Assembly (NCBI GenBank): GCA_017881075.1
Contig: JADGRH010000001.1
Coordinates: forward strand, 59,639 to 123,638
Length of the DNA stretch: 64,000 nucleotides
Direction of reading: 5' to 3'
Source: Minisyncoccota bacterium
Lineage (GTDB): Bacteria; Patescibacteriota; Minisyncoccia; Phycocordibacterales; CAJBRS01
Below the pieces are notes generated by a model that searched no databases, was not told the DNA's origin, and saw nothing but the letters and a program-made list of their open reading frames with translations. Both the position numbers and the translations under genes were made by a program. Shown here one piece after another: positions 1 to 55,472 of this stretch; positions within the stretch are counted from its first letter, which is position 1; every line of letters starts with the position of its first letter.

Positions 1-3000
1 GCAACCTCATCTATATTCAGGGTGAATGCTAATGGCAACGTCGGCATCGGGACGACGACACCGGGGTATAAGTTACACGTTAAGTCGGCTAGTGATATTC
101 AATTTGCTCTCGACGTTGATAGTGGAGGTAGATACACAAGTCAATATTTTCTGAATAATGGCTCAACTCGTGCGGTTAATTTTTGGGACGAGACGAGTAA
201 TAATTTAACAATTGGAACATCGCACTCGGGCGCAGATTTGATTTTCAATCGGGGATTAAATGCTGCAGCAATGACGATTAGTGGAACTACAGGCAACGTC
301 GGCATCGGGACGACGACGCCTAGTACAAAATTGTCAGTGGCAGGTCAAGGATTCTTTGAAACTTCGACTGAAACCCCAGTGGGTTCTGGAACTCCTGGTC
401 CTGGGATAAGGATTGGGTATCTTACAAGCGGTGATTATGGATATATAACTTCAAGTAATTCTGGTGTAGCGGCTAAAAACTTGGTTTTGCAGCCTGGCGG
501 AACTGGAAATGTGGGTATCAATCAAACTGTGCCATTAGATTTGCTTCATATAGCAGGTGATAACATAGCTACGATAAGATTGCAAAACACAATCTCTGGT
601 GGAAAAACGTACCAAATCGGTTCCGCCATTTCTGGTGTAAGTAATGCAGGTTTTCAAATCTATAATGTTACCAACTCAAGAAGTGAAATGGTAATTGATA
701 CAAACGGCAACGTCGGCATCGGGACGACGGCGCCGGGTGGAAAACTAAGTGTCTCCGGCGGTGCCGCTATTGGCTCATCTTACGCTACCACTGCAGTTTC
801 GGATGGAAATCTCATAGTTTCTGGTTCTTTGGGCATCGGGACGACGACTCCTGGATCTAAACTCGACATCTGGGGAAATCTCAATGTGGCTACTGGCACC
901 ACTCCGGCACTTTTCGTGAATACGGCGACGGGGAATGTGGGAATTGGAGTTATTAATCCCGGTAAACCTTTAGATGTAACGGGAGATATTAGAGCTAGTG
1001 GAAATCTGTTGGCAGGGGGCGGCAATGCTTATCTTTTTAACGGAGGAGTTAGATTAGGAAATTCTTCTGGAGAAATTGATCTTTCTGCTAACGATATGAT
1101 TTACGGACCCAATGCCGGAACAACCAATCATATATTCAAGATCGGAGGAAATGAAATCGCTAGGATAAATTCAACAGGAATCGGCATCGGCACGACAACC
1201 CCAGGAGCAAAGCTACATGCTCTTTCCACCACCGAGCAATTAAGACTAGGATACGATGCTTCAAACTACAATTCCTTCACTGTCGGTTCGACTGGAAGTC
1301 TCACAGTCGCCGCTGTAGGAACTAATCCTAATATCACCCTTACACCTGGTGGAACGGGGTATACCATATTGAACGGCAACGTCGGCATCGGAACGACGGC
1401 GCCGGGTCAAAAACTTGATGTGGCAGGAAACATTAATGTTTCAACTAATTCTGCCTATATGTATAACGGCCTGAATGTCATCACCGCATCAACTACATTG
1501 AGTAATTATTTCTTCGGTGGTTCTGGTAACTTAACAATGACTGGAAACGCCAACACCGCCAGTGGTTATCAGGCGCTCTATAGCAACACCACTGGAACCA
1601 CCAACACCGCCAGTGGTTTTCGTGCGCTCTATAGCAACACCACTGGAACCTACAACACCGCCAGTGGTATTAATGCGCTCTATAGCAACACCACTGGAAC
1701 CCGCAACACCGCCAATGGTCTTGGAGCGCTCTATAGCAACACCACTGGAGGCAATAATGCGGGATATGGTATCAACTCTGGCTACGGCCTCACCACTGGG
1801 AACAATAACACCTTAATCGGACCTTCTGATTCTGTGGTCGCTTCATACAATCAGGTTACTACTGGCTCTAACAACATTTCAATCGGCAACAATGTCGCCG
1901 TGGCCAGCCCAACGGCAAGTAATCAATTGAACATTGGTAATCTTATCTATGGTACAGGCTTGAATGGCACGGGAGCGACGATAAGTGGCGGCAACGTCGG
2001 CATTGGGACGATTGCCCCAGACAAAAAACTCGAAGTCAATTTAGGAACATCAGATGCTCTCCGACTCACTTACAACGACTCTGATGGAAGTGCGGCTAAC
2101 TATACGGATTTCAATGTTTCTTCCGTCGGAAGTTTGACCATTGCTCCCACAGGAACTAATCCTAATATTACTCTCACCCCAGGAGGAACGGGGTATACCA
2201 TATTGAACGGCAATGTTGGGATTGGGACGAGCACGCCGACGTTGCCATTGGTTGTTAACGGCAAAATTATGAGCTATGGGAACAGTACTAACCAGATTAC
2301 TATGTCACCGGCGGGCAATGGCGTAGACAGTTACGCTCATTTGCAAATATTCAACACCGCAGGGTATGGTCAGGGCTATTTGGATTTTTATACCTATCCC
2401 GGCCAGGGTCTGGGTACACCTACGGTAAGATGGCGGGGCGTTGACCTCGGCAGCTACACCGGTGGCCACGTATTCTCGGCTTCCGCCGCCTCGCAGAACG
2501 GCGCTTCCACGGATGTCTTATTCGTTGGAAATACCGGAGCTACTGGCGTACTTACTAATCATTTTGGCGTAGGTGTGTTAACTAACGCGCCAGTATCGGC
2601 GTTGGATGTTAACGGCGGGGTAAGCATCGGTTCATACGCCGCTGTTAACGCGGCCCCGAGCAACGGGTTAATTGTCAGTGGCAACGTCGGCATCGGGACG
2701 ACGACACCAGGATTTAATCTTCAGGTTGCAGGTACTGGAGTTTCAGCGGCATTTGGGGCGGCGGCAAATAATAACGGAGCGGGGGTTGCTTTCTTGGGGT
2801 CAAGCACTGGCAAAAATTTCTTTATCGGTAATCAATATAATATAGGTGGCGCTTTGGAGATTACGCCATCGACTGCCAATGGCGGTTCCACTTTCACGAC
2901 GCCTGTTGTCACAATTTTAAGCACCGGCAACGTCGGCATCGGGACGACGGCGCCAGGCACCAAACTGGAAGTGGTTGGTACGGCTTCTTCTACTGGTTTG

Positions 3001-6000
3001 CAGGTTAATGGCAACGGAGCAATCACAGGAACGATAAGTGCACCAACTTTTGTAGCTACCACAAACAATATCGCGTTCCTTTCACTAAAATCACTTTCTT
3101 CTACAATTGGAGTGGGAGTTACAAATGGAGATGTTCTTTCATTTGACTGGGGCGGAATATATCCAAAGGGGTATCAATTCAGAACATCGGCGACACAGGG
3201 GATTAATATAGATAGTTCAGGCAACGTCGGCATCGGGACGACGGCGCCAGGGGCATCTTTGCAAGTTGCTGGCACTGGTATATGGTCTAGCGTTTACGGT
3301 TTTTCTGCCGGTGGGAACGCGCCACTTGCAGTTGGCACAGCAGTACTTCGTACGGGTAATGACTTCCGTATTCAGGACGATGGTAGTTTTAAAATAAATC
3401 AAAGTGGCGCGGCGGCATTCCTGACAATATTAAACACCGGCAACGTCGGCATCGGCACGACGGCACCTAGGGAAAAACTTGATGTTGCGGGAAATATCAC
3501 CACGGATTGGGCAGACCGCTTCATTGGAACTGAATATCAAGATGGCTCTACTTACAGAATGGGTATGAAAGTAGTTACTTCAGATAGAGATTTGCAGATA
3601 ATTAACAAGAGCGCAGGAGAGAATTTTTCGGGAATTTCCTTTCATACGGGGACTGGTCCAACGGAGCGTATGAGAATTGATAAGGGCGGCAACGTCGGCA
3701 TCGGGACGACGAATCCTGGAAACAAGTTAGTTGTGAGCGGAGCCGGTTATACTTATGCAGAGGTAGATGCAAGTTCGAGCAGCGGAACATATTCCGGAGG
3801 TTATCGTGCATATAATGATGTCGGGGCACAGGTATTATTGGATATTTATGCCAGCTCCAGTGTGGGCACATATCTAGGCCAGCCTCTTTCTAATCTTGTA
3901 AGGTTAACGGATTATAGCGGTTCAAGCGGTATTGCCATAGGCACATACACAAATACTCCGCTCACGTTAGGCACCAATAATTCGGCAAGGTTGGTAATCA
4001 ATGGTGCAGGCAACGTCGGCATCGGGACGACGGCACCGAGTGCGAAGTTACAAGTAAATGTAGCCAGTGGGTATGCAAATACTTGGTGGTCAAATGATAG
4101 TGTAACTACTCCATTTAGCGCTATTTACGGAGCTCACGTTGTTGGGTCATTCGGTCAAAATTATTCAACGGGTGGAGGTGCTGATTTTGCTGGATTTAGT
4201 CACGCAAATAACGAAGTCGGGGTGGAATTTGACGGATATGTAGGGGGAACTAGTCCTACAGCACCTGCACTTTTATTGGCAGGTTGGAAGTCTAATGGCA
4301 CTACGGGTGCTTCGGCGATGAGTGGAACAGATATTATTGCGCAGATTGCGGCTGGTGCGTCTCCTGTTGTGACAGTTCAAGCAAACGGCAACGTCGGCAT
4401 CGGGACGACGTCACCTGTCTCAAAATTAGATGTCTCAGTAACTTCACCAGGGTCAACAAACTTTGGTTTAAGTGTGCGGGATTCTACCGTAACCCCAACG
4501 TATGCCAGTAATGCAGATAATCTTTTAACTGTAAGAGGGGCAGGCAGTTCGGTAACTACTTGGAAAGGAAGAATTACTGCAGGTGGAGATAATGTGGAAT
4601 TTCTTATGGGTGAATACAATTCTCTTGCTTGGTTAGGAGCGCATAATGCCGCCCTCAATGCTTGGACTAACATATATATTAACCCTGATGGTGGGTCAAA
4701 TGCATACATTGGAGATTCAGGTGGTGGAGTTAACAATATCCCAGTTCCGATTCTTGCGGTAATTAACAGCACCGGCAACGTCGGTATCGGGACGACGGCG
4801 CCAGATGTAAATCTAGCAATTGGTTCACAGTTACTTGGTGCGCAAGGATTAAGCGGAGCCGTCTTAAACCTTGGTGGTAGTTCCTCTCAAATGCCAGGCA
4901 TAAATATTGGGCAAGACGCTACTCACGCCATAGAGTTTTATTGGATAGGCAATGCGACACCTGGAAGTGCGACTGCTGCGTTGGAAACCTCTGGCTACTT
5001 AAATCCATTTGCTATTAACGGTTCAAAAACAACCATACAAAGTGCGGCTGGAAATGTGATATTGGCGACAGGTGGTGGCAACGTCGGCATCGGGACGACG
5101 GCACCGGGTGGAAAACTAAGCGTGTCCGGCGGTGCAGCTATTGGCTCATCTTACGCTACCACCGCAGTTTCGGATGGAAATCTCATAGTTTCTGGTTCTT
5201 TGGGCATCGGGACGACGGCGCCGGGGTCAAAGATTCAGGCTGTAGGAGGATATATATCAACTTTTGATAACACTGGATACGGACCTGCATTTATGCAAGG
5301 CGCAAGTGGTGTTTCATATTTCGGCAACACCGGGACTTCAAGAATTGCTTTCGGGAACAATACTAATTATGAAAGGATGACGATTTTAGATAACGGCAAC
5401 GTCGGCATCGGGACGACTACTCCGGGTTTTCTTCTCACTGTTGCTGGCACTTCCAACATCACCGGAGCGGCGATATTCGGATCGACTCTAGGAGTTACTG
5501 GTGCAACAACTCTTTCTTCAACTTTGGGCGTCACCGGCCAAACAACTCTGGCGAATGCTTCATCAACGAATCTCACCGTCTCCACTAATTCATATCTTGG
5601 AACTGTGCAGTCAGGAACTTGGAATGGAACGACCATTGCTGTAGCAAACGGAGGCACTGGCCAAACCACATACACTAATGGCCAACTCCTGATTGGTAAC
5701 ACTACCGGCAATACTCTTACAAAAGCAGCTTTGACAGGCACTACAAATCAAGTAGTAGTGACAAATAGCACAGGTTCAATCACTCTTTCCACTCCGCAGG
5801 ATATTGCTACGGCCTCCACTCCAACCTTCGCCTCAACCACTCTTTCAAACTTTACTCTAGGATCCATCCCATTCTTCGGCAGTAGTGGAAAACTGGGTCA
5901 AAACAATGCCAACTTTTTCTGGGATGGTACCAATAACAGATTAGGGATTGGGACATCTACTCCCGATACGCTCCTTACCGTTGCAGGAAACGGAAGATTC

Positions 6001-9000
6001 ACCGGCACCCTCTCCGCTTCAAATCTCTCCGGCACCAACACTGGCGATGTAACTCTAGGAGCAATTGCTGCTACTCCAAACGCAAACGGAGCTTCTCTTT
6101 CCGGGCAAGTCTTAACTTTGCAGCCAGCCTCGACTTCCTTTGGCGGTGTCGTTACAACCGGAACTCAATCGTTTACAGGAGATAAGACCTTTACATCAAA
6201 CTCACTCGCAGCTTTACAAGTTACGGGGAGTAACACAGGAAGAACCTCTATCACTGTTCAAAATACGAACGCATCAGGTAATGCATCATTCTACTTTCAA
6301 AATGATAGAGGTAGCTTCAATTCATACGGAGGCCTTTTGACAGGAGGTTCGTCAGATGTAGGAGGTACTTTATTTGGGCTTGCTCGTGCGGACAGAACCT
6401 TCTTGATAAATGATGGTACTAATGCTCTAGGACTTGCTCTTGGTACTTTGACAGCACAGCCATTGACACTAGGAACGAATAATTTGGCACGGGTCACAAT
6501 TCTAAGTGGTGGTAATGTCGGAATTGGAACGACAGCACCGACCAGCACACTTGAATTATATAGAGGCGATAACAATATCGGGCCAACTCTTACTTTGAAT
6601 AATCCTACTGGAAATGCAGGCACCGCCGGATCAGCAATAGACTTTCTCGGTTATAGCGGAGCGAGCCAGCCGGTTACTAATAGGATTAAAACCATCGACG
6701 ATGGAGCTTATGGCTATCATTTAGCATTTCTCACCAAAGCGGATTCTTCGGGAGGAGCACTTTTTGAAGCAATGAGGATACAAGGAGGCACGGGCAATGT
6801 TGGGATCGCCACCACCACTCCGGGCTTTCCACTTACAGTGACAGGCGCTTCTAATTTCACCGGCGCCCTCAACTTTAACGGCGCCGCTGGATCTTCCGGA
6901 AACATCCTCCAATCAAACGGATCGGGAAGCGCTCCAAGCTGGGTATCAACCACCACACTCGGTACCATTGCGGTAAACCAAGGCGGCACCGGCCAAACTA
7001 CTTATACAAACGGCCAGCTCTTGATCGGAAACACCACCGGAAATACATTAACAAAAGCAACTCTCACGGGCACCGCTAACCAAGTGAATGTTACGAATGG
7101 TGCTGGTTCAATTACCCTTTCTACTCCTCAAAATATTGGTACCACATCCTCTCCCACATTTAACTCTCTCAATATCGCTAATGGATCAACATATAGCGGT
7201 TGGATAGGTAATTTCGGGCTAGGCTCTGACTGGGTTGGATTTACCGCAGATGGAGCGCAAAGTGCTTCAAAGTATGCATTCGAAGCAACGGCATCATATG
7301 GTGAAACTGTTTTTAATGCTAACGGTGGGGGGACATTGCCCTTCATTGATTTTCGATTTTCCAACGGGGGTGTTGAACCTATTACCAGAATATATGGGTC
7401 TGGCGGGCTCTATTTTGGTAGTGTGGCTGGTGCTGCTGACCCCGGTTTACAGAACCTCTCTATCTTTTCTGGAAAACTTGGTGTTGGGGTTCTAACCGCT
7501 TCTGCCAAAATCCACGCCCTTTCCACCACCGAGCAATTAAGACTAGGCTACGATGCTTCCAACTACAATTCCTTTACTGTCGGTTCAACTGGAAGTCTCA
7601 CAGTCGCCGCTGTAGGAACTAATCCTAATATTACCCTCACGCCGGGCGGAACTGGGTATACCATATTGAACGGCAACGTCGGCATCGGGACGACGACGCC
7701 AGGGGCAAAGTTGAGTGTCAAAGGTGGTGGTACTACAACAGGTCTTAACTTCCAAACTACAAACTCTAATAACCTACCTTTGGTCACAATATTAGACTCC
7801 GGCAACGTCGGCATCGGGACGACGACGCCGGGGAATAAACTCCAGATAAATGCTGCTCTTGCCACTGCTTCTGAATCTTTGCTTCGTCTGTCTGGAGGGT
7901 CAACGGGATTTGCCGGGACCAATGATGCAGGCACTGCGTATTCTCTTGTGTTCGATGGTACTGCATATAGTGTTGGTACTGGAGTTGTGCAACGTGATGG
8001 TGCAAAGATTGAGATGGCAAAAGAGGCATCGTGGAACGAAGCCGGTGGTGGCGGCGGTCCGCTTGGAGCATTATTGTTCTACACGAGTGCAGGTTCAATT
8101 GCATCTCCGAAGCTAACGGAAAAAATGAGAATAACAAGTCTCGGCAACGTCGGTATCGGGACGACGGCGCCGGATTCGAAGTTAACTATTTCATCAAATA
8201 CCGCAACCTTACCGTCTGGGGCAGCCACACTTCGTATTGCTGAAGCCGATACCGTGCAGACTAGCGCGGTTATAGACGCTTTTGCTACTAACGGGCTTTT
8301 TAACTTTCGACGGGCCGACACTACGGCGGCAAGCCCCTCGGCGGTCCAGTCTGGTGAAAATTTGGGCGTGTTCGGCGCCGCTGGCTACGGAACCAGTGCT
8401 TATTCCGGCACCCGCGCCCGCGTTGGATTTTTTGCCGATGAGACTTGGACGAATACTGCTAATGGAACATCCATTCGCTTTAGCACTACGCTCAATGGCG
8501 CCGCCACAGCGGGAGGCACGGAACGCATGAGAATAGATAACGCCGGCAATGTCGGAATTGGCACCTCCACCCCGGACCAAGCTCTAGTTGTATCAGGTAC
8601 GGCAAGAGCTACCAACTTACTCGGAGGTGCCACAACTCTTTCAACCGATGCTTCAGGTAACATTATTCGTACTCCATCAGACATTAGTCTCAAGGAAAAC
8701 ATCCAAAATATCGATAGCGCTGATGCTCTAAGCCAGGTTCTAGCCCTTCAAGGAGTAACCTATTTCTGGAAGGACAAGGCGAGATTTGGCACTGCCCAAG
8801 AAATTGGCTTCATCGCCCAGCAAGTCGAACCGATTGTCCCCCAAGTAGTTAAAAGCGGAGGAGCCTACAAATCCCTTAACTATGGTAACTTAACAGCCGT
8901 CCTTGCCAGCGCCATTCAAGAGCAACAAAAACAGATTACAGCCAATGCTTCAACGACGCGGGCCAATGCCTCAAGCACCGCCTCCGCTCTTTCTTCACTG

Positions 9001-9606
9001 GATCTTAGAGTAAGTACCTTAGAGAACCTGGGACCCCAAAGAGGGGGTGGAGGAGTCAGCACTGGAATCTTTGAAGATCTCCTTTCAACACTACAATCCT
9101 TTGGCACCGAAATCGTTGACGGAGTTTCTTATATGAAGAACTTCCTTGCTGAACATCTCACTACCCAGAACTTGACTATAAAAGGCAAAGATATTACGAA
9201 GACAGGATTCACTATTTATGATCGGGCTACCGGCGATCCTATCTGCGTCTATTTTGAGAACGGGATCCAAAAGACTTCCCCAGGCGAGTGTCCCGACAGC
9301 ACAGCTACTTCAACTCCTCCAACAGACACTACCTCCATTGTCTCAGACAACAACCCCCCAATAGATCCCCTCACCGGATCCAGCACTCCTCCGATCTCCG
9401 ATATCGGATCAAATCCTCCTCCAGACCAACCCCCTCCAACACCACCACCCGCCGACCCCACTCCGCCCTCCGATCCCACCTCCTTGATAGCGCCGAGCGC
9501 CCCAACATCACCACCAGCCCCTGATACGTCAGGATCGAATCCTTCTGATTCGACGTCCGCTCCCGCTGATCCGGGCTCGGCTCCTTCCAATGGGGGAGGC
9601 AATTAG
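1..9606 (+). CDS. Giant repetitive surface/fibre-like protein (5'-truncated at window edge; >3194 aa) with C-terminal phage tail-spike-type intramolecular chaperone (peptidase S74-like) domain and Pro/Thr-rich tail
   Basis: Frame 1 is open from nt 1 with no upstream stop, and the ORF-track start at 22 is GTG. The motif GNVGIGTT(T/A)PGxKL recurs about 18 times. Near the C-terminus, 'SDISLKENIQNI...LQGVTYFWKD...IGFIAQQVEPIVPQVV...YGNLTAVLASAIQEQQ' fits the chaperone-of-endosialidase / S74 consensus. The last ~100 aa are P/T/S-rich low complexity. Stop is TAG at 9604-9606. Confidence 0.8.
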   Translation, partial: ATSSIFRVNANGNVGIGTTTPGYKLHVKSASDIQFALDVDSGGRYTSQYFLNNGSTRAVNFWDETSNNLTIGTSHSGADLIFNRGLNAAAMTISGTTGNVGIGTTTPSTKLSVAGQGFFETSTETPVGSGTPGPGIRIGYLTSGDYGYITSSNSGVAAKNLVLQPGGTGNVGINQTVPLDLLHIAGDNIATIRLQNTISGGKTYQIGSAISGVSNAGFQIYNVTNSRSEMVIDTNGNVGIGTTAPGGKLSVSGGAAIGSSYATTAVSDGNLIVSGSLGIGTTTPGSKLDIWGNLNVATGTTPALFVNTATGNVGIGVINPGKPLDVTGDIRASGNLLAGGGNAYLFNGGVRLGNSSGEIDLSANDMIYGPNAGTTNHIFKIGGNEIARINSTGIGIGTTTPGAKLHALSTTEQLRLGYDASNYNSFTVGSTGSLTVAAVGTNPNITLTPGGTGYTILNGNVGIGTTAPGQKLDVAGNINVSTNSAYMYNGLNVITASTTLSNYFFGGSGNLTMTGNANTASGYQALYSNTTGTTNTASGFRALYSNTTGTYNTASGINALYSNTTGTRNTANGLGALYSNTTGGNNAGYGINSGYGLTTGNNNTLIGPSDSVVASYNQVTTGSNNISIGNNVAVASPTASNQLNIGNLIYGTGLNGTGATISGGNVGIGTIAPDKKLEVNLGTSDALRLTYNDSDGSAANYTDFNVSSVGSLTIAPTGTNPNITLTPGGTGYTILNGNVGIGTSTPTLPLVVNGKIMSYGNSTNQITMSPAGNGVDSYAHLQIFNTAGYGQGYLDFYTYPGQGLGTPTVRWRGVDLGSYTGGHVFSASAASQNGASTDVLFVGNTGATGVLTNHFGVGVLTNAPVSALDVNGGVSIGSYAAVNAAPSNGLIVSGNVGIGTTTPGFNLQVAGTGVSAAFGAAANNNGAGVAFLGSSTGKNFFIGNQYNIGGALEITPSTANGGSTFTTPVVTILSTGNVGIGTTAPGTKLEVVGTASSTGLQVNGNGAITGTISAPTFVATTNNIAFLSLKSLSSTIGVGVTNGDVLSFDWGGIYPKGYQFRTSATQGINIDSSGNVGIGTTAPGASLQVAGTGIWSSVYGFSAGGNAPLAVGTAVLRTGNDFRIQDDGSFKINQSGAAAFLTILNTGNVGIGTTAPREKLDVAGNITTDWADRFIGTEYQDGSTYRMGMKVVTSDRDLQIINKSAGENFSGISFHTGTGPTERMRIDKGGNVGIGTTNPGNKLVVSGAGYTYAEVDASSSSGTYSGGYRAYNDVGAQVLLDIYASSSVGTYLGQPLSNLVRLTDYSGSSGIAIGTYTNTPLTLGTNNSARLVINGAGNVGIGTTAPSAKLQVNVASGYANTWWSNDSVTTPFSAIYGAHVVGSFGQNYSTGGGADFAGFSHANNEVGVEFDGYVGGTSPTAPALLLAGWKSNGTTGASAMSGTDIIAQIAAGASPVVTVQANGNVGIGTTSPVSKLDVSVTSPGSTNFGLSVRDSTVTPTYASNADNLLTVRGAGSSVTTWKGRITAGGDNVEFLMGEYNSLAWLGAHNAALNAWTNIYINPDGGSNAYIGDSGGGVNNIPVPILAVINSTGNVGIGTTAPDVNLAIGSQLLGAQGLSGAVLNLGGSSSQMPGINIGQDATHAIEFYWIGNATPGSATAALETSGYLNPFAINGSKTTIQSAAGNVILATGGGNVGIGTTAPGGKLSVSGGAAIGSSYATTAVSDGNLIVSGSLGIGTTAPGSKIQAVGGYISTFDNTGYGPAFMQGASGVSYFGNTGTSRIAFGNNTNYERMTILDNGNVGIGTTTPGFLLTVAGTSNITGAAIFGSTLGVTGATTLSSTLGVTGQTTLANASSTNLTVSTNSYLGTVQSGTWNGTTIAVANGGTGQTTYTNGQLLIGNTTGNTLTKAALTGTTNQVVVTNSTGSITLSTPQDIATASTPTFASTTLSNFTLGSIPFFGSSGKLGQNNANFFWDGTNNRLGIGTSTPDTLLTVAGNGRFTGTLSASNLSGTNTGDVTLGAIAATPNANGASLSGQVLTLQPASTSFGGVVTTGTQSFTGDKTFTSNSLAALQVTGSNTGRTSITVQNTNASGNASFYFQNDRGSFNSYGGLLTGGSSDVGGTLFGLARADRTFLINDGTNALGLALGTLTAQPLTLGTNNLARVTILSGGNVGIGTTAPTSTLELYRGDNNIGPTLTLNNPTGNAGTAGSAIDFLGYSGASQPVTNRIKTIDDGAYGYHLAFLTKADSSGGALFEAMRIQGGTGNVGIATTTPGFPLTVTGASNFTGALNFNGAAGSSGNILQSNGSGSAPSWVSTTTLGTIAVNQGGTGQTTYTNGQLLIGNTTGNTLTKATLTGTANQVNVTNGAGSITLSTPQNIGTTSSPTFNSLNIANGSTYSGWIGNFGLGSDWVGFTADGAQSASKYAFEATASYGETVFNANGGGTLPFIDFRFSNGGVEPITRIYGSGGLYFGSVAGAADPGLQNLSIFSGKLGVGVLTASAKIHALSTTEQLRLGYDASNYNSFTVGSTGSLTVAAVGTNPNITLTPGGTGYTILNGNVGIGTTTPGAKLSVKGGGTTTGLNFQTTNSNNLPLVTILDSGNVGIGTTTPGNKLQINAALATASESLLRLSGGSTGFAGTNDAGTAYSLVFDGTAYSVGTGVVQRDGAKIEMAKEASWNEAGGGGGPLGALLFYTSAGSIASPKLTEKMRITSLGNVGIGTTAPDSKLTISSNTATLPSGAATLRIAEADTVQTSAVIDAFATNGLFNFRRADTTAASPSAVQSGENLGVFGAAGYGTSAYSGTRARVGFFADETWTNTANGTSIRFSTTLNGAATAGGTERMRIDNAGNVGIGTSTPDQALVVSGTARATNLLGGATTLSTDASGNIIRTPSDISLKENIQNIDSADALSQVLALQGVTYFWKDKARFGTAQEIGFIAQQVEPIVPQVVKSGGAYKSLNYGNLTAVLASAIQEQQKQITANASTTRANASSTASALSSLDLRVSTLENLGPQRGGGGVSTGIFEDLLSTLQSFGTEIVDGVSYMKNFLAEHLTTQNLTIKGKDITKTGFTIYDRATGDPICVYFENGIQKTSPGECPDSTATSTPPTDTTSIVSDNNPPIDPLTGSSTPPISDIGSNPPPDQPPPTPPPADPTPPSDPTSLIAPSAPTSPPAPDTSGSNPSDSTSAPADPGSAPSNGGGN
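1561..1800 (+). repeat. In-frame tandem repeat of a ~60-nt unit (about 4 copies), encoding NTASG(Y/F/I)xALYSNTTGTxNTASG, inside the giant gene
   Basis: 'caccgccagtggt...gcgctctatagcaacaccactggaacc' is visibly repeated at 1553-1612, 1613-1672, 1673-1732 and 1733-1790. Confidence 0.8.
9391..9412. repeat. REP-type palindrome TCCGATATCGGA (family 1), embedded in the 3' coding region of the giant gene (encodes PISDIGS)
   Basis: Perfect 12-nt palindrome tccgatatcgga preceded by the partial duplicate tccgatc. The same core recurs at 10438-10449 and 10520-10531. Confidence 0.7.
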
Positions 9607-9736: not shown

Positions 9737-9762
9737 TTAATCTACGCTCCGATCTCCGATGT
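9737..9762. repeat. REP-type near-palindrome (tccgatgtcgga variant of family 1) overlapping the 3' end of the RAYT gene
   Basis: 'gctccgatctccgatgtcggatcgaattc' has the same core as the other family-1 copies with a central 2-nt change. It encodes the RAYT C-terminus ...PTSEIGA. Confidence 0.6.
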
Positions 9763-10428
9763 CGGATCGAATTCATCAAATGTTTTGGCAGGACTTGTGT
9801 CTACAAAATGCTTGTACTCTTCTTTGTTTTTAAATTGGTCAAGAATGAGATCTGTTTTTAGAAGTTCACCCCATCGATTTTCTCCAATATAGTCTTGATA
9901 ACTTGACCAAGGGTAAAAATGCTCCTTGTCCTTCCACCCCGGCAATTCTCGTGCGTTTCTATGAATATAAGCGGAAAGGTGAAGCAACTGAGTATTGTCT
10001 GCAATCAGGACACTCTTGAAAGCTCCCTGAAATAGGTGCCCGATATGAAGATCTTTATATTTTTCATTATTATATTTTGTAGCGGAGATTATAATTCTTT
10101 GTAAATATTTTGATAAAGCTCCATCTTTTTTCCCTGTCGCACTTAGATGAAAGTGATTTGGCATTAAGCCGAATGAGTGAAGCTCCACAGTACGCGAGGC
10201 GACGATCTCCGAAATGATTTTCTTGCTGACCTGGAATTTCCTATGCTTCTCAAAGTATTTTACATATTGAGATAGGTGGCTAAACTTAATCGGAGACTGG
10301 AAAAATAGTATAGTAAAAAGAAAGCGAATATAATCGCGATTATCGTGGAAAATAATTTGCTTATTATTGCCTCTGCTAAGGAGATGAAATACTTCACCCG
10401 CGGCCAAGTTGTCTTTTCTATATGGCAT
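9742..10428 (-). CDS. REP-associated tyrosine transposase (RAYT; IS200/IS605-like HUH transposase)
   Basis: HUH motif 'LMPNHFHL', size about 228 aa, conserved Tyr-containing C-terminal region, flanked on both sides by family-1 REP palindromes. Confidence 0.75.
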   Translation of the reverse strand: MPYRKDNLAAGEVFHLLSRGNNKQIIFHDNRDYIRFLFTILFFQSPIKFSHLSQYVKYFEKHRKFQVSKKIISEIVASRTVELHSFGLMPNHFHLSATGKKDGALSKYLQRIIISATKYNNEKYKDLHIGHLFQGAFKSVLIADNTQLLHLSAYIHRNARELPGWKDKEHFYPWSSYQDYIGENRWGELLKTDLILDQFKNKEEYKHFVDTSPAKTFDEFDPTSEIGA

Positions 10429-22107: not shown

Positions 22108-22189
22108 AGCCGAGTTTCTGCAGATTTTTTTTATCTATAATTTATATTTCCTTTAATGTTTCTTCATAGTCGGTACTATAAAATATCTT

Positions 22190-22208
22190 GCAGAGGTCAG
22201 ACCTCTGC
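22190..22208. repeat. REP palindrome family 2 copy (central A variant) directly abutting the RAYT start codon
   Basis: gcagaggtcagacctctgc, followed 3 nt later by the RAYT ATG at 22212. Confidence 0.8.
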
Positions 22209-22211
22209 AAG

Positions 22212-22907
22212 ATGAGAAAAGAACCATTTAATGTCGGATCATACATTCATGTAATAAAAAGAGGCCATAGAAAGTCTCTCATTGTTCGGGATGAGAATGA
22301 CAGAAATCATTTTGAGCGAATCTTGTATTACCTGAATCATAAGAAATCATTGCCCGAACGTTGGTCTCAGATTTTAAGAGAAAAGAGAATTAAGAATTTT
22401 GATTTTCCTAAGGAGTGGGGAAAAAGAAAGCCTTTGGTAAAAATTGTAGCTTATGCTCTAATGCCGAACCATCTTCATCTATTTCTGAAAGAAATTGTTG
22501 AAGGAGGAGTAACGACTTTCATGAGAAAAATAGGCAATAGCATGACAGCTCATTTTAATCTCAGACATGAAGAATCTGGAACGCTTTTTCCAGGTGCCTA
22601 TCGGTCTAAAACAATTGAAGACGATGCTTATTTTCGTTACTGTGGAGTATATATCATGGTCAAAAATATTTTTGAGCTTTATCCTGGTGGACTCGAGCGA
22701 GCAAAAAAAGAATTTGAGATAGCATTTCAATGGGCTTTAAATTATAGATTCAGCAGTTTGCCGGAATATCTGAATATCAGGACTCAACCGATAATCGATA
22801 AGGAATTGTTAGGGGAACTCTTTTTCGGTCCTAAGGACTTCAAGGATTTTGCTAGAGATTGTATTTTAGGAAGGAAACCTGATTTTAATGAGATAAATCT
22901 AGAGTAA
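22212..22907 (+). CDS. REP-associated tyrosine transposase (RAYT, second distinct copy/family)
   Basis: HUH motif 'LMPNHLHLF', about 231 aa, bracketed by family-2 REP palindromes. The ORF-track start at 22188 lies inside the REP, so the second Met (22212) was chosen. Confidence 0.75.
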   Translation: MRKEPFNVGSYIHVIKRGHRKSLIVRDENDRNHFERILYYLNHKKSLPERWSQILREKRIKNFDFPKEWGKRKPLVKIVAYALMPNHLHLFLKEIVEGGVTTFMRKIGNSMTAHFNLRHEESGTLFPGAYRSKTIEDDAYFRYCGVYIMVKNIFELYPGGLERAKKEFEIAFQWALNYRFSSLPEYLNIRTQPIIDKELLGELFFGPKDFKDFARDCILGRKPDFNEINLE

Positions 22908-42796: not shown

Positions 42797-44692
42797 ATGT
42801 CTAAAAATCATTTCAGACTGATTTTATCAGTTTTCTTTATAAGTGCTTTCTTTTTGGCCCATGGAGCTCTGGCGGCGACCCACCCTACACCAGTCTTTAC
42901 AGTGGATATGCATGATTACACTTACCCGCCTGAAGCTTCTACTGATGCCAACACTGGCGGGCAGGTTAGTGGTCTCCAGAACTTTTTGACAACCACTGGT
43001 TATTTCCACGGCCCAGTCAGCGGATATTTCGGTTCTGTCACCAAGACCGCCGTTGTAAACTTTCAAGTAGGCAACTGTATTGATCCTGCTTCTGGATATG
43101 TTGGGTCTGTCACCCGCGCAAGAATTGCCACTGGAAATTATGTAAACGGAGGCCCTAATCCTACAACTTGCGTTCCTGCTCCCTCTAATCCATTTATCCA
43201 AATCTATTCTCCAAATGGGGGAGAGCACTTAGTAAGCGGACAAACAGCCAACATCTCCTGGAATGCTCACAATATTCCACTTGGGGCAACACTCTCTCTA
43301 GGCTTAATACCTGTAGGAGCGCCTTGCAGTCCTCTTCCTTGTGTTGGTACTATGATGCTTATAACTACCCTTCATAATGATTCAGGTCAATACACTAATT
43401 CTGCTAGCTATGATTGGTTAGTGCCGATTATGCCTGGTCCTCAACAGTACAATATTAATATTATTGTTCGGCAAGGTAATAATCCAGAGACTCTTGCATC
43501 CGACCAGACAGATGCGCCATTTACTATCGGACCACTAACTACGACAGGACCTCACATCTCTTTTCTTTCTTCGGTCTCTGGTCGAGCCGGCAGTCAACTG
43601 ACGATTTACGGATCGGGATTTGCGCCGACATATAATACCGTTAACTTTATTGGCCCGCCTCCTTTGGGTGCTGGCCTTGCTGTATTACCATCAAACGGAA
43701 CATCTATAACGGTCACTGTGCCAAATATTGCAAATCTTCCACCGGGCATATATATGGTTGCTGTCTCGCATGATCCAGACAATTCGCCAAGCAACCTAAT
43801 GACTTTTGTCGTGCTCTCTAGTAATCAAACAGGATCTCCGGTCATCTCTTCTCTTTCTCCCAACCCTGCCCCTGTGGAGTCATCAGTAGATATTATTGGC
43901 TCAGGTCAAATAATTAGCGGCATCTTTTATCCCGTCTTAACAGACAATGGTTGTCCTGCAGTAATACTCCCGATTCATTTCAGCCCGACTACCGGAAGAC
44001 CAATATTCGACGTCCCGTTTCATTATGGGTGCTCGAACGGCTATCACCCGGTCGTCCCAGGCAACTACATCGTCCAGGGACTAGACACCAATAACTGGAA
44101 GATAAGCAATGCGGTCAATTTTGTGGTTAATGCTGGAACTGTGACGACCTGTATTCCGTACACCACTCCGGGTGTCCAGTATACTTGTGCGCCTTCATAT
44201 TCTTACATCGATCCTTCTTTTGGTCCGGTAGGCAGCACAGTTTATCTATATGGCTCAAACTTCAACCCAAACACTTTTGTCGCCCTTGATGGAAGCTATG
44301 GACAATCGATTACTCCAACCTTAATATCCTCTACTACTCTCCGTTTTATCATTCCATCAAACACCAGTCTTGGCACGCACCTTGTTCAAGTCAATGATAG
44401 AGCGTCAAGTTTTTCTTTGAGTGGCTACGGTAACTTCACTGTCACCTCCGGGCCTGCTCCTACTCCTCCGCAGAAAGACCCAATTACTACAGTCAAACCA
44501 GCTCCAAGTGTCACCCCCAGCACTTCAGCCACACCAAAATCAAATGACTCGGCTAATAAGATGCAGACAGCCAATGTTATTGATTCCTTGAACAATCTGG
44601 TCAACATAGCTAATGGAAATAATATGACAGCGGAAGTGCGTAGTGCTATCAATCTATTGTTGAGAAATTTGCAGATATTTGGCAGGTATTAG
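42797..44692 (+). CDS. Secreted cell-surface protein with an N-terminal peptidoglycan-binding-like domain and multiple IPT/TIG-like Ig-fold repeats
   Basis: Signal peptide. 'LQNFLTTTGYFHGPVSGYFGSVTKTAVVNFQ' resembles PG_binding_1. Repeated 'I..ISP..G..G..VTI.GSGF' IPT-like modules. PT-rich stalk near the C-terminus. Confidence 0.5.
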   Translation: MSKNHFRLILSVFFISAFFLAHGALAATHPTPVFTVDMHDYTYPPEASTDANTGGQVSGLQNFLTTTGYFHGPVSGYFGSVTKTAVVNFQVGNCIDPASGYVGSVTRARIATGNYVNGGPNPTTCVPAPSNPFIQIYSPNGGEHLVSGQTANISWNAHNIPLGATLSLGLIPVGAPCSPLPCVGTMMLITTLHNDSGQYTNSASYDWLVPIMPGPQQYNINIIVRQGNNPETLASDQTDAPFTIGPLTTTGPHISFLSSVSGRAGSQLTIYGSGFAPTYNTVNFIGPPPLGAGLAVLPSNGTSITVTVPNIANLPPGIYMVAVSHDPDNSPSNLMTFVVLSSNQTGSPVISSLSPNPAPVESSVDIIGSGQIISGIFYPVLTDNGCPAVILPIHFSPTTGRPIFDVPFHYGCSNGYHPVVPGNYIVQGLDTNNWKISNAVNFVVNAGTVTTCIPYTTPGVQYTCAPSYSYIDPSFGPVGSTVYLYGSNFNPNTFVALDGSYGQSITPTLISSTTLRFIIPSNTSLGTHLVQVNDRASSFSLSGYGNFTVTSGPAPTPPQKDPITTVKPAPSVTPSTSATPKSNDSANKMQTANVIDSLNNLVNIANGNNMTAEVRSAINLLLRNLQIFGRY

Positions 44693-48280: not shown

Positions 48281-48411
48281 GCCTGGTGGTTTTGAGTTCG
48301 AGTCCTTAACCCCCAACAAATAAATAAAAGATAATTTTAAGATAATGTTATTGACAAAATGGCTAAATAGGCGTAGTTATATATTATTATTTGCTTAATA
48401 ATTATATTGCC

Positions 48412-49557
48412 ATGAAAAAACTTCAATTTTCAGCCATATTTTTCAGCCTAATTTTGACAGTGATGTTCTTTCCACATTTCGGATTGGCTGACACCGTTGG
48501 TCTCTCTGTGAGTAGTATGAGCAATAACAGGGTTCAGATTAACGTAAATGGCGACAGTAATTATTCTGTAGATCTTTTTTACCAAGTATCTCCGTCATCG
48601 CCCACCATCCCTGTTGGTTCTATTGGCACCACCGACTCAAGTGGTTACTTTTCTGCCATTCTAAATAGTGGCAGCTACAATCTCTCATCGGGTTATAGAG
48701 TATATGTGGAAGTGAATGGCCAGCAATCAAACACCGTGATCTGGCCGTCTTCTGACAATAACAATAACGACCAAATCACTTTCAGTCAGAACAATATAGA
48801 ATTGGATTATAACCAAAGCATCACCGTAAATATTTATGGTGGCTCCGGCTCGTATTATATTTCTTCCAATTCAAATTCTGATTTTGTCAACGCCTCAATC
48901 AGCGGTAATCAAATTTATCTCTCAACTGACAATAATAATCAGTATAACGGTGACTCGGCTACCATCCGTGTCTGTTCTCGTAATGGTAATTCAAGTTGTG
49001 GTTATCTGTATGTAACCCAGAGTGGCAATAATAATAATGAACAGGTTAGTTTCAGCCAAAATAATATTAATCTCAATATCGGCCAACAAGTTCAAACCAC
49101 TATCTACGGTTCCGGCAGTTACTACATTTCTAACAATTCTAATTCAAATGTGGTCAACGCTTATCTAAACGGCAATACTCTGAATATTACAGGAAGTCAA
49201 AGTGGTTCAGCCACTATCAGAGTTTGTTCCAATAATAGTAATTCAAGTTGTGGCAATCTTCATGTCAGTGTCAGTGGCAACTATTATAATAATAACAATG
49301 GCTACTACAATAATCCTCCCATCGTCTACGTTCAGAATCCAACCACTCCTATGTATACTCAGTCTATTTATGGCGGATTAGGCACGCCGTCCGCCGGAGT
49401 ATTCTTAAGCCATGTGCCTTCAACCGGCATCAGTTTCAATCTGAAAATGGCTCTCTTTTTCATCGGCCTCTTTATGTGGAGTGCTTTCGGTGCTTTTATG
49501 ATTCTTTCCTACCAAGAAAGCAAGAAATTACTGGCTGACCTAGAAAAGAGAAATTAA
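48412..49557 (+). CDS. Secreted surface protein with repeated Ig-like modules and a C-terminal VPSTG + TM + charged-tail sorting-signal-like module
   Basis: Signal peptide from the ATG at 48412. Repeated '...ATIRVCS.N.NSSCG.L.V..SG' modules. C-terminus 'HVPSTGISFNLKMALFFIGLFMWSAFGAFMILSYQESKK...'. Confidence 0.6.
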   Translation: MKKLQFSAIFFSLILTVMFFPHFGLADTVGLSVSSMSNNRVQINVNGDSNYSVDLFYQVSPSSPTIPVGSIGTTDSSGYFSAILNSGSYNLSSGYRVYVEVNGQQSNTVIWPSSDNNNNDQITFSQNNIELDYNQSITVNIYGGSGSYYISSNSNSDFVNASISGNQIYLSTDNNNQYNGDSATIRVCSRNGNSSCGYLYVTQSGNNNNEQVSFSQNNINLNIGQQVQTTIYGSGSYYISNNSNSNVVNAYLNGNTLNITGSQSGSATIRVCSNNSNSSCGNLHVSVSGNYYNNNNGYYNNPPIVYVQNPTTPMYTQSIYGGLGTPSAGVFLSHVPSTGISFNLKMALFFIGLFMWSAFGAFMILSYQESKKLLADLEKRN

Positions 49558-51065: not shown

Positions 51066-51719
51066 ATGAAACAGTCAGTAAAGTGGTATAAACACAAAGA
51101 GACCCTTTTCATTCTGCTCTTCGTTGGTATATTTTTCGTCTCCTTTGTCATTTTGTATTTTCTGGGACTAATTCCTAATGAGTTGATTGTTGATACCAGT
51201 AAGCCGAGCGCTCTGGACCAATTGAATGAACACTCCATTGAAAGTGTTGTTGGGGGCAATAACTCGAATAATTATTCAGTCACCATTCTCCAAGAAGAGC
51301 CCATCAAGATTGAGGCGGCCACAATCGGTTTAAGTTTCAGTATTGAAAACCCGACCACTGATAATTATCAGGCTCTGGATTCGGCACTGGTGAGGGGGGC
51401 GGTCCATTATCCCGGCTCCGGTTTTCCCGGTGCAGGCAACATGTTTATTTTTGGTCACAGCACCGGCTTCAAAGTAGTGAACAACAAGGCTTATCAAGTT
51501 TTCAATAATATTCACAATCTTCAGCAAGGTGATGAAATAAAAATTTATTCCAAGGACAAAGTTTATTCATATCGTGTCAGTTCGGTGAAGTTGGAAAAAG
51601 ACAGTAATGCTTATGTCAACTTCTCCACCAATATCAACAAATTAACTCTCTCTACCTGCAACAGTTTCGGCGCGAAAGAAGATAGGTATGTTGTGGAGGC
51701 AGACTACGTTAGCAGCTAA
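51066..51719 (+). CDS. Sortase-family transpeptidase
   Basis: N-terminal TM anchor. Catalytic His in 'IFGHSTG', Cys in 'LTLSTC' (TLXTC) and Arg in 'EDRYVVEADY'. Followed by a GC-rich hairpin ggggccggcgc-gga-gcgccggcccc. Confidence 0.75.
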   Translation: MKQSVKWYKHKETLFILLFVGIFFVSFVILYFLGLIPNELIVDTSKPSALDQLNEHSIESVVGGNNSNNYSVTILQEEPIKIEAATIGLSFSIENPTTDNYQALDSALVRGAVHYPGSGFPGAGNMFIFGHSTGFKVVNNKAYQVFNNIHNLQQGDEIKIYSKDKVYSYRVSSVKLEKDSNAYVNFSTNINKLTLSTCNSFGAKEDRYVVEADYVSS

Positions 51720-51853
51720 GGGGCCGGCGCGGAGCGCCGGCCCCGTTGACTATTTCTTCATATAGTGGTAGCAATTAGAGTGGGTAAAACCAACTATTTT
51801 CAATAGAAATTTGACAAATCAATAAAACAAAAAACAAGAAAGGGCAGTTACAG

Positions 51854-53821: not shown

Positions 53822-53840
53822 TAGGGAAATAACGATAGTC

Positions 53841-53870
53841 GGCGTCGCGTCTTGCGCGACGCCTTTTTAA
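53841..53870 (+). terminator. Rho-independent terminator
   Basis: ggcgtcgcg-tctt-gcgcgacgcc + ttttt. Confidence 0.75.
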
Positions 53871-53960
53871 TTTTCCATTGACACCAGCTACTTATCATGA
53901 TAGATATCTGACTAGATATTGTAGGAAAAAACAACGAACAAAAACAAAAAGAAAGGTATT

Positions 53961-55424
53961 ATGATTAGTTTTTTGATAACACCGTGCAGGAAAATTTGGC
54001 CGAAAAAGCTGAAACCATGGCTTACGGCCACCATAGCCGTCGATATCGGCACCGACAATCTCGACATTTGTCTATGTGATTCAGACGGAAAGCCCGATGT
54101 CGACAAGATTCTTCAGCTGCCCACCGTTGCGCTCAAAATGGCTGATGGAGAAACTCTTCTCGCCATTGGGGATGAAGCTCGAGCGGTGATAGATCGTGTC
54201 TCTAATGATGCGGAAGAAAAAAGGCGTGTGGAGGTGATCCAGCCGGTCAGAAACGGCAAGATCGTCAATCGTCCAGTGGCGACAGCTCTTCTTAAGATGG
54301 GCCTCCGAGAGTTTTGGAAGCAGTATCCTCAAATCACGGATCAAACGCAAATCCGCCTGATTGTCACAGTGCCAATCAAGTTATCTCATGTCCAGGAACG
54401 AGAGGTAGTCAATGTGGCGCAAAACGCGACCACGAGGAATGACGATAGCAGCACCACTTCCGTCTCGGTTATCGATCAGCCGATGGCAGCAGCCATTGGT
54501 TCGGGAGTTTATAACCCGAAGAAAGTTATTGGGTCACTGATTTGTGACATCGGAGGGGGTACTCACCAGGTGATGGCCGTTTCCGGAGTAGCAGGTAACA
54601 TGGCCTCCAGGCTTTTGGAAGAAGGAGGCAACGCTTATACGGAGGTCATACAGGAGTATTGCCGCACCAAGCACAAGATCGATCCTGACTTCAACGAAGC
54701 CGAAAGGGTAAAGTGCGAGATCGGAGCAGCCGAGGTGGTTCCTGAAAAAGACGAGAACAACAAGATGACAGATGGTAATCGAACTACCAGAATCTATGGC
54801 AAACATCTCGAGACGCACTTGGGTGATTCGGTTGAATTGACCAGCGAGGAGTTGGTACCGGTCTTTGCTTCAATCCTTGGTCGTTTCGTGAGACTGATCA
54901 AGGAAGTGGGAGATGTCGCGCCCAAAGGAGTGGTTGCTGACATGGCAAAGCCAAACTCGGGTCTTTATCTTGCAGGCGGAGGCTCTCTGCTTCGCGGTCT
55001 GCCAGAATACCTGAAGAAAGAAACTGGTTACAATGTCTATGACATCCCGAATCCTCAAAGAGTTGTTGTGATTGGGGCGGCCATGGCACTGGGGAGTCCC
55101 ATCCTCTCCTTCAACTTTGTCCGGGAGCCTATCATTGAAGATCCAAAACGAAAGGGTTTGCCGAAAGCTGTCAAACGACCGTCGTTCAGCAACTTGAGCG
55201 GTCAAAGTCCGACCTTCAGATGCTCAACTCTTCCATCGGAGGATGGAGAATCGGATCCGGTCACCCAATACTCGAAGGGCACAACTTCTGATGGTAAGAC
55301 CTTCGAGGAGAAGGCCTTGCTCCTGGGTGTAGGCGTGAAGTATCTCGACGATCTCACACCCGCTGAGAAGAGACGACTCGCGGCGCAGAAGAAAATGCCG
55401 GTAATGGAGACGCAGACAGCCTAA
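53961..55424 (+). CDS. Divergent MreB-like actin-family ATPase with ~90-aa C-terminal extension
   Basis: 'IAVDIGTDNL' (phosphate 1), 'IDQPMAAAIGSG', 'GSLICDIGGGTHQVMAVS' (phosphate 2), 'GGNAYTEVIQEY...ERVKCEIGAA', 'GLYLAGGGSLLRGLPEYLKKETG' (adenosine motif). These align in the MreB order. Confidence 0.7.
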   Translation: MISFLITPCRKIWPKKLKPWLTATIAVDIGTDNLDICLCDSDGKPDVDKILQLPTVALKMADGETLLAIGDEARAVIDRVSNDAEEKRRVEVIQPVRNGKIVNRPVATALLKMGLREFWKQYPQITDQTQIRLIVTVPIKLSHVQEREVVNVAQNATTRNDDSSTTSVSVIDQPMAAAIGSGVYNPKKVIGSLICDIGGGTHQVMAVSGVAGNMASRLLEEGGNAYTEVIQEYCRTKHKIDPDFNEAERVKCEIGAAEVVPEKDENNKMTDGNRTTRIYGKHLETHLGDSVELTSEELVPVFASILGRFVRLIKEVGDVAPKGVVADMAKPNSGLYLAGGGSLLRGLPEYLKKETGYNVYDIPNPQRVVVIGAAMALGSPILSFNFVREPIIEDPKRKGLPKAVKRPSFSNLSGQSPTFRCSTLPSEDGESDPVTQYSKGTTSDGKTFEEKALLLGVGVKYLDDLTPAEKRRLAAQKKMPVMETQTA

Positions 55425-55442
55425 GGGTAGTAATTAGTCAGC

Positions 55443-55472
55443 GCCGCGGAAACCTAGTTTCCGCGGCTTTTT
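55443..55472 (+). terminator. Rho-independent terminator
   Basis: gccgcggaaacc-tag-tttccgcggc + ttttt. Confidence 0.8.

Follow-up and report, generated by a model that had tools for sequence, protein, structure and literature searches.

The stretch of 64,000 nucleotides of contig JADGRH010000001.1 from a Minisyncoccota bacterium that was analysed here (the window) opens inside the gene for a giant surface protein that resembles phage tail fibres, and this gene, in particular the part of it that lies behind an S74 chaperone domain, is the subject of this report. Frame +1 has no stop codon between nt 1 and the TAA at 9604-9606, and the gene is cut by the 5' edge of the window; the open reading frame (ORF) listed by the program, 22..9606 with 3,194 amino acids (aa), starts at the first GTG. 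An exhaustive HMMER search yielded the full-length protein, P0061 (3,910 aa, 100% identical), which contains window residues 11-3201 exactly at an offset of +709. Residues are numbered below along the window frame. The features that carry the argument are the following.

1..9606 (+): 3' 82% of the giant fibre gene; frame +1 is open over 3,201 codons, which encode residues 710-3910 of P0061
8566..8676 (+): last stalk segment, ...LLGGATTLSTDASGNIIRTP up to the predicted cleavage site, strongly conserved in the closest homologues (GGATTLSTDASGNIIRTPSD)
8677..8853 (+): core of the Peptidase_S74 (chaperone of endosialidase) domain, from Pfam PF13884, PHROGs and the alignment to MYRF 7dc3
8854..9030 (+): C-terminal remainder of the chaperone, whose last helix extends into a predicted coiled coil, from PHROG alignments and AlphaFold2 (AF2)
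9031..9054 (+): Gly-rich linker GPQRGGGG, from the translation
9049..9306 (+): conserved post-chaperone module ("ext"), aa 3017-3102, about 85 aa, from phmmer, alignment A1 and AF2
9292..9603 (+): low-complexity Pro/Ser/Thr/Asp tail of 104 aa, from composition

The full-length protein and its genomic setting

The N-terminus of P0061, MIQNRLKSKLQLNKLDVRSLILTLLITGSIFFVLFSLYSNVALA|AINQQINYQGKL, has a basic stretch, a hydrophobic segment (maximum Kyte-Doolittle value 2.35) and an Ala-Leu-Ala site (ALA|A), and because of these features it is read as a Sec-type signal or signal anchor. The N-terminal 274 aa matched only the fibre repeats of 8ond and gave no match to a Pfam family, and the INYQGKL N-domain is common to only 10 of 64 long relatives that bear the post-chaperone module. 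Downstream of the gene, 54 kb of the window encode enzymes of carbon metabolism (GAPDH, RpiB, ribulose-phosphate epimerase, a split transketolase and aldolase), components of translation (L25, a release factor, S2, EF-Ts, PheS and ThrRS) and of replication (GyrB and DnaE), and also a Y1 transposase, a sortase and several low-complexity surface proteins; no phage structural genes (capsid, terminase, tail) or lysis genes were found among these 54 kb. The G+C content of the fibre gene is 0.47-0.50 as compared to about 0.40-0.45 for the genome. Gene content and the module-bearing relatives described below both indicate a genome of the CPR/Patescibacteria, and run SRR10489828 also contains this locus.

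A prophage or phage tail-fibre gene lying in a bacterial contig could be suspected from the strong PHROG tail-fibre matches of the protein, from the S74 domain, which is best known from phage fibres and spikes, and from the Y1 transposase just downstream. However, virion fibres lack an N-terminal signal or anchor such as the full-length protein has, and what follows the gene is not a phage module but genes for glycolysis, ribosomal proteins, tRNA synthetases, gyrase and DnaE. In addition, relatives with the post-chaperone module lie on Patescibacteria contigs of up to 596 kb, and the pattern scan of IMG/VR described below gave no match. A phage origin is thus very improbable and was rejected on gene context and signal peptide. 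With its Sec-type signal and its housekeeping neighbours, the gene is cellular.

The S74 domain and the predicted cleavage site

PF13884 was matched at aa 2893-2951 over its whole profile (1-58/58) with an E-value of 6.9e-15 and 55.5 bits, the cut-off being 22, and the core was also matched by 22 PHROG tail-fibre and chaperone families. The catalytic dyad is intact. Ser2893 (codon 8677-8679) and Lys2898 (8692-8694) lie in SDISLK, which conforms to SDxxxK, and a Pro precedes the Ser; the protein reads ...NIIRTP|SDISLKENI... across the site and the predicted scissile bond is P2892|S2893. In the HMMER alignment to 7dc3 the dyad falls on the MYRF positions S587(A)/K592. The original prediction, made from the letters of this stretch, had proposed an S74-like chaperone domain that is not C-terminal and whose cleavage would release a large fragment, and it had asked for an HMM (hidden Markov model) search. 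The significant match to PF13884 and the intact dyad bear out the domain, and the distance of 309 aa from the catalytic Ser to the C-terminus bears out both its internal position and the size of the predicted fragment.

In 57 close S74 relatives the corresponding distance has a median of only 100 aa (interquartile range [IQR] 97-121, maximum 233). How much of the C-terminal part is truly additional depends on where the chaperone ends. The original prediction put about 230 residues behind the domain, which agrees with the 225 that follow '...AIQEQQ' and the 250 that follow the Pfam match. The Pfam model, however, covers only the first ~58 residues of the chaperone, so that the true excess over a canonical chaperone is about 200 residues, and the "extra" sequence was overstated in part because the chaperone's own terminal helix lies outside this short model. 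The PHROG alignments reach aa ~2980-2988 and stop 10-20 positions short of the families' own C-termini, and a canonical phage-type chaperone would therefore end near aa 2990-3000. A helix of ~50 residues was predicted at aa 2961-3010 with a low predicted local distance difference test score (pLDDT) by single-sequence AF2 of the monomer, and close relatives without the post-chaperone extension end in clear coiled-coil sequence. The coiled coil that had been proposed to follow the chaperone was thus found at low confidence, and the Cys-containing region and the Pro/Thr/Ser-rich tail proposed to follow it were found as C3082 and C3097 and as the 104-aa tail.

A conserved module and an acidic tail follow the chaperone

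When aa 3011-3100 were compared by phmmer to 1.84 billion cluster representatives, the module was found in 272 representatives at E<=1e-3 and in 25 at E<=1e-10, in proteins of 54-5,744 aa. It was the exhaustive HMMER search that revealed this family; a word-indexed homologue search with the extension alone gave no match and the same search with alignment A1 gave one 132-aa fragment only. Alignment A1, which has 48 modules with the consensus S.L.S.G..I..G.A..K...A...T...L.VG......TGITIYDR.TG.P.CV..ENG..KT..GEC, has four invariant columns, namely, G3069, C3082, G3095 and C3097 (Cys codons 9244-9246 and 9289-9291), and the window protein matches the HMM derived from it at an independent E-value of 4.5e-34. 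With A1 as input, AF2 gave a confident core (pLDDT 89-97 over model residues 40-90), and the predicted fold combines an amphipathic helix with a short hairpin, an extended segment and a three-stranded sheet. The 272 clusters, the four invariant columns that include both Cys, and the confident AF2 core together show that the module is a real domain. Its two invariant cysteines are probably joined by a disulfide. No family in Pfam-A, NCBIfam or PHROGs covers the module, and a Foldseek search against viral models gave no structural relatives at E<=1e-3.

The tail between the module and the C-terminus usually has ~100 residues (median 102 aa, IQR 76-137). The tail of the window protein, which ends ...APSNGGGN, is 29% Pro, 18% Ser, 13% Thr and 11% Asp and has neither a hydrophobic stretch (maximum Kyte-Doolittle value -0.16 in a 19-aa window) nor a sorting motif, and the tails of 139 relatives are rich in T/S/P/E/A/D. 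That the fibre itself is a sortase substrate was ruled out by its C-terminal sequence, which has no xPxTG followed by a hydrophobic helix and a basic tail.

Pro/Thr/Ser-rich segments are typical of the wall-spanning regions of Gram-positive surface proteins. The module and the tail could hold the nascent C-terminal end in the cell wall or S-layer, and the distal tip would then be freed by the S74 cut, with the N-terminus still anchored. The constancy of the tail, with its median of 102 aa after the module, would fit such a tether, as would the conservation of the module across classes of the Candidate Phyla Radiation (CPR), which is expected of a partner on the bacterium's own cell surface, and the IMG/VR pattern scan without a viral contig match. 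Against it, the fibre lacks an LPXTG-like signal with a hydrophobic helix though the window encodes a sortase and likely substrates, a transmembrane (TM)-like segment is present in just 1 of the 139 tails, and known wall-binding domains were not detected in family-profile searches. We regard a tether of this kind as unlikely.

The predicted 309-aa fragment, which includes a folded module, is three times as long as a chaperone usually is, and so it was also considered that the S74 cut serves to set it free as a soluble toxin or signal, in the way that Rhs toxin tips are released by autoproteolysis. However, the module is small, is conserved rather than polymorphic and has no match to an enzymatic or toxin family, there is no adjacent immunity-like gene, and one third of the fragment is low-complexity tail, all of which makes a released effector highly unlikely.

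Distribution of the module and its partner domains

A pattern scan with one genome per species gave 15 loci with the module, and 13 of these are titled as Patescibacteria (Paceibacteria, 'Saccharibacteria', Taylorbacteria, Parcubacteria, Sungiibacteriota, WWE3 and 'Patescibacteria group'), while the other two are titled just 'uncultured bacterium' and 'bacterium'. The module is thus conserved across CPR classes. A similar, narrow pattern scan found no relatives of the module in IMG/VR. Since both scans used narrow peptide patterns, the true range of the module may be wider. Given the 272 clusters, the architecture of S74 followed by the module is the norm within the CPR lineage.

Partner domains were surveyed in the best 150 representatives with an iterated S74 HMM. 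A first local S74 HMM was too narrow, detecting the domain in 66 of the 150 at a median gap of ~28 aa, and iteration raised this number to 98. After 27 N-terminally truncated fragments were set aside, S74 was directly upstream of the module in these 98 of the 123 non-fragment representatives, and the 25 others are longer proteins with other sequence upstream. A Pfam spot check of one of the representatives, P0062, confirmed a divergent S74 domain. The S-x4-K dyad is retained in 82 of the 98 proteins with S74 and module, for which the fragments predicted to be released have a median length of 304 aa. Some of the dyad-less representatives are N-terminally truncated fragments.

About 15 of the 25 representatives without S74 share another domain, DxAExYPTxD...GDIV...GxxSTxPG..LG...VALxGRVPVKV..ExGxI..GD.IT.SS..G.GMKA. 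A profile of this domain (A3) matches the autochaperone of phi29 gp12 (the pre-neck appendage), 3gqh, from chain residue 1 (E 1.3e-4), and it also matches full-length gp12 (6qz9) at residues 691-743. Since the module lies behind either an S74 or a phi29-gp12-like (Peptidase_G2) domain, which are unrelated classes, it travels with self-cleaving chaperones.

These partner domains bear on the question whether the module stays on the fibre. The S74 domain could be a permanent trimerisation unit, or the cut fragment could stay bound, and in either case the module and the mucin-like tail would be the functional far end of the fibre, for example in host contact. This would agree with the module being at the distal end while the export signal is at the N-terminus, with its compact and confidently predicted fold, and with the Ser/Lys dyad being missing from some relatives that have S74 and the module. 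But the dyad is kept in the window protein and in those 82 relatives, and the module shows high conservation, unlike receptor-binding tips, which vary more than any other part of a fibre, as in the 'tip swapping' of the mosaic adhesive trimer (MAT) fibres of Bdellovibrio bacteriovorus (PMC10769870). Moreover, its occurrence behind a second, unrelated type of self-cleaving chaperone points to the discarded side. A retained tip is, in our judgement, quite improbable.

Several other arrangements were observed in these proteins. In four representatives (P0114, P0134, P0140 and P0178) the module comes after a third type of terminal element that matches no Pfam family, LGSxSxRWANLYAxTTxVGDLVFxNxFRxTE. 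Two CPR fibre genes (L006 1643-2584 and L008 5269-6225) each encode two S74 domains in tandem followed by the module, and a Paceibacteria genome has two adjacent fibre paralogues (L002 2752-6555 and 8278-11697), each of which ends in S74 and the module. Three close S74 relatives (P0002, P0007 and P0010) carry a different two-Cys element behind S74 in their C-terminal ~100 aa, C-x-[DG]-D-x-C-[IV]-T-x-x-x-F-K-x-x-L, and a tail rich in Pro, Thr and Glu comes after it. Because this element differs from the module, environmental proteins have add-ons of more than a single type behind S74.

A proposed role of the C-terminal part as a discarded assembly cassette

On balance we consider it somewhat probable that the protein is a Sec-exported, homotrimeric, phage-tail-fibre-like surface fibre of a CPR bacterium and that its last 309 residues are an extended C-terminal assembly cassette that is discarded. 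The cassette would consist of the S74 chaperone, the lengthened trimeric coiled coil, the ~85-aa module with its probable disulfide, and the acidic, disordered Pro/Thr/Ser tail. After export, the three C-termini would join through the coiled coil and the module, by which the chains would be brought into register, and the chaperone would then template the folding of the beta-helical fibre from its C-terminal end. Once the fibre is trimeric, the Ser2893/Lys2898 dyad would cut P2892|S2893, the whole cassette would leave and the fibre tip would be exposed. The trimerisation and the cleavage of this fibre are predicted events, and the module is read as an additional trimer-nucleating or holding element. 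That the module belongs to the pro-region that would be cut off and not to the mature fibre is the simplest reading of its conservation across the CPR, its position behind two classes of self-cleaving chaperones and the dyad that is mostly intact. The conservation of the module also favours a role in assembly because adhesive tips are normally variable. What the module contributes might be extra trimer nucleation, a temporary tethering to the envelope, or, through the acidic tail, solubilisation.

Several points weigh against a discarded cassette. First, 16 of the 98 proteins with S74 and module have no recognisable dyad and several of these appear complete at the start of the domain (for example P0063, P0118, P0170 and P0172); in such relatives the cassette may stay attached. 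Second, the G2-like assignment stands on Pfam Peptidase_G2 matches below the gathering score in 7 of 15 members (best E 2e-4) plus one profile match. Third, Bdellovibrio and phage S74 fibres fold without the module, and so S74 function as such does not need it. Fourth, the single-sequence AF2 model of aa 2838-3100 is poor, with a mean pLDDT of 42.6, and the structure predictions of both the chaperone region and the module are of monomers. Finally, two invariant Cys and a tail of ~100 aa on a part that is thrown away remain without explanation.

We propose, more tentatively, that the module and the acidic tail are a previously unrecognised domain family, seen so far only in CPR bacteria, which was recruited behind S74 and G2-like chaperones and which would define a lineage-specific pathway for the assembly of giant trimers outside the monoderm cell, in which, for example, the three C-termini might be nucleated or tethered ahead of the chaperone's action. 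If this possibility holds, the host-attachment fibres of episymbiotic CPR bacteria could be found and studied by way of the module. To judge from the libraries and the literature that were searched, both the conserved module behind the chaperone and its association with chaperones of the self-cleaving kind are new.

Comparison with known S74 proteins

The closest cellular counterparts are the MAT fibres, of which 21 proteins have been described, all with a signal peptide and all trimeric with capping loops; in 13 of the 21 the C-terminus is formed by an S74 domain that contains SDxxxK, and one of these, Bd3182, cleaves itself at S782, which is blocked by S782A (PMC10769870). Their capping loops follow V-G-x-x-x-x-P-x-x-x-L, and a conserved, beta-rich N-terminal domain of ~130 aa comes after the signal peptide (PMC10769870). 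Like the MAT fibres, the protein described here is cellular, has a signal peptide and a phage-like fibre with capping-loop modules (28 motifs), is mosaic in content and is predicted to be trimeric, and it shares the S74 domain with the SDxxxK motif with their S74 subgroup. Because of the MAT fibres, therefore, a cellular, secreted, phage-like trimeric fibre with S74 is already known in kind. The differences are in size (3,910 aa as compared to roughly 1,000 for MATs), in the host, which is a monoderm CPR bacterium here and a diderm predator in Bdellovibrio, and in the C-terminal part. MAT S74 fibres end in S74, and the Bd3182 construct of aa 632-922 has ~140 aa after S782 as compared to 309 here; a post-chaperone module and a Pro/Thr/Ser tail have not been described for MATs.

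With phage endosialidases and tail fibres (K1F endoNF and T5 pb1) the protein shares PF13884 and the Ser/Lys dyad, and its domain is predicted to lie, like theirs, after a beta-helical stalk and to end in a helix for a trimeric coiled coil. Phage S74 proteins, however, have no signal peptide and fold in the cytoplasm, and their families end 10-20 residues past the position that corresponds to aa ~2985 of the window protein. The autochaperone of phi29 gp12 (Peptidase_G2, PF11962, 3gqh), which is matched in ~15 module-bearing relatives, is absent from the window protein, and in gp12 nothing comes after the autochaperone, unlike in those relatives. A purely functional analogy to the module is the foldon of T4 fibritin, a small C-terminal beta-hairpin unit that nucleates the trimerisation of a long fibre.

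In the ICA domain of MYRF, a eukaryotic membrane-bound transcription factor (PMC3742443, PMC8326128), as in the window protein, S74 is internal and the Pro|Ser...Lys geometry is identical, and in the stalk GRVGINTDRPDEALVV aligns with GNVGIGTSTPDQALVV. In motif and spacing the stalk agrees with both the MYRF and the MAT structures at the level of sequence. MYRF is cut at P586|S587, both S587 and K592, which correspond to S911/K916 of endosialidase NF, are essential, and trimerisation is mainly driven by the coiled coil and is a prerequisite of cleavage (PMC8326128). The two proteins differ in what lies on the C-terminal side, which in MYRF has a transmembrane anchor, the product being the released N-terminal trimer, and which here has no anchor; there is no sequence relation between them past the coiled coil. 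The original prediction had called an S74 domain in this position unusual for a cellular surface protein. This was too strong a statement, as MAT fibres are cellular and S74-terminated, the domain is internal in MYRF, and the architecture is recurrent in CPR bacteria.

Nothing known about S74 domains is overturned by this fibre. CPR/Patescibacteria are mostly uncultured episymbionts, and their attachment to host cells is largely unexplained, although surface adhesins are reported to be indispensable in the small number that have been cultivated (PMC11665869). The gene shows that CPR bacteria, like Bdellovibrio, produce phage-like fibres, here of very large size and predicted to be trimeric, whose chaperone is of the self-cleaving type, and many CPR fibres share a conserved and unannotated C-terminal module. 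This module could serve as a sequence marker for cataloguing CPR fibres, as a clue to how trimers of several thousand residues are assembled outside the cell, and as a test case for what an S74 pro-region tolerates without loss of function.

The fibre body and its repeats

The part of the protein that precedes the last stalk segment is a mosaic of modules, each of which is headed by a capping loop of the form (G)NVGIGTTxPxxKL. Its features are as follows.

34..8565 (+): mosaic fibre body, from the capping-loop motif count and the DNA repeat families
706-860 / 5077-5231 (+): internal duplication, 94% nucleotide identity
1207-1406 / 7504-7703 (+): internal duplication, 91% nucleotide identity
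1540..1794 (+): four tandem 51-nt repeats that encode 17-aa units, NTASGxxALYSNTTGTx (repeat family D3, 68-90% identity)

In the window part of the protein GNVGIGT occurs 21 times exactly and its relaxed form [VIL]G[IV][GNA][TVQ]xxP 28 times, at spacings of 36-293 aa, so that the about 18 modules of the original prediction were an undercount. The last of these headings occupies aa 2849-2855 (nt 8545-8565). Matches of the body to PHROG tail-fibre families have E-values of 1.9e-51, 1e-47 and 2.1e-30. The body module ERMRIDxxGNVGIGTxxPxxxLxV aligns to MAT fibres (8ond/Bd2133 with E 1.1e-9 and 8oml with E 2.2e-8, and also 8on4, 8ojn and 8ol4), and the MAT crystal-structure sequences are matched directly by body modules at E-values of 1e-9 to 9e-3. 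It also aligns to the MYRF stalk and ICA structure 7dc3 (E 5.3e-8), and a phage long-tail-fibre tip, 6f45, is the third structure group that was aligned. The two long internal duplications at 91% and 94% indicate recent intragenic duplication or conversion.

At the DNA level, 13 of the 21 GNVGIGT copies are encoded by an identical 21-mer, GGCAACGTCGGCATCGGGACG, and 18 are within one mismatch of it (window 34-8163; for example 34-54, 292-312, 706-726 and 7801-7821), with flanks that are just 60-75% identical. This 21-mer is built from codons that are in the minority elsewhere in the gene, and its probability per copy is 3.3e-5. In a CPR fibre gene that is otherwise unalignable, L011, it encodes 6 of 7 copies (L011 1105-5178). 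It is present in at least 120 IMG/VR contigs, and two synonymous control 21-mers likewise reach at least 120. As both controls behave alike, occurrence in many contigs is no evidence of selection at the DNA level, and the proposal that GGCAACGTCGGCATCGGGACG is conserved as DNA across genomes was withdrawn; the uniformity of the copies inside the gene is unaffected by this. Among the matches listed, contigs with GGCAACGTCGGCATCGGGACG have the same version at 29% of their other GNVGIGT sites (median G+C 0.46), and for the two controls this reuse is 13.6% (G+C 0.56) and 2.5% (G+C 0.38). Judging from the sequence, it is plausible that GNVGIGT is homogenised within the gene, for example by gene conversion or in-frame recombination between modules, and the 21-mer sites might be anchors of such in-frame recombination or gene conversion in module shuffling.

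Other genes of the window

IS200/Y1-transposase-like genes (PF01797) are present directly downstream of the fibre gene at 9742-10428 (-) and at 22188-22907 (+). The sortase (PF04203, E 6e-20) is encoded at 51066-51719 (+). Two low-complexity surface proteins, at 48391-49557 (+) and 58212-59663 (+), have C-termini with [VI]P[SA]TG followed by a hydrophobic helix and are for this reason its likely substrates. The region 51800-58100 has a G+C content of 0.49-0.51 as compared to ~0.42 and a strong AT skew (up to 0.26), and it may be a foreign island; in it lie a 655-aa ORF without a Pfam match, Ala/Lys-rich coiled-coil-like ORFs and a gene for an MreB/actin-like protein at 53961-55424 (PF06723, E 4e-45). 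The gene at 42797-44692 (+) encodes a secreted envelope protein of 631 aa in which a peptidoglycan-binding domain (PF01471) is combined with a C-terminal part rich in Pro and Thr.

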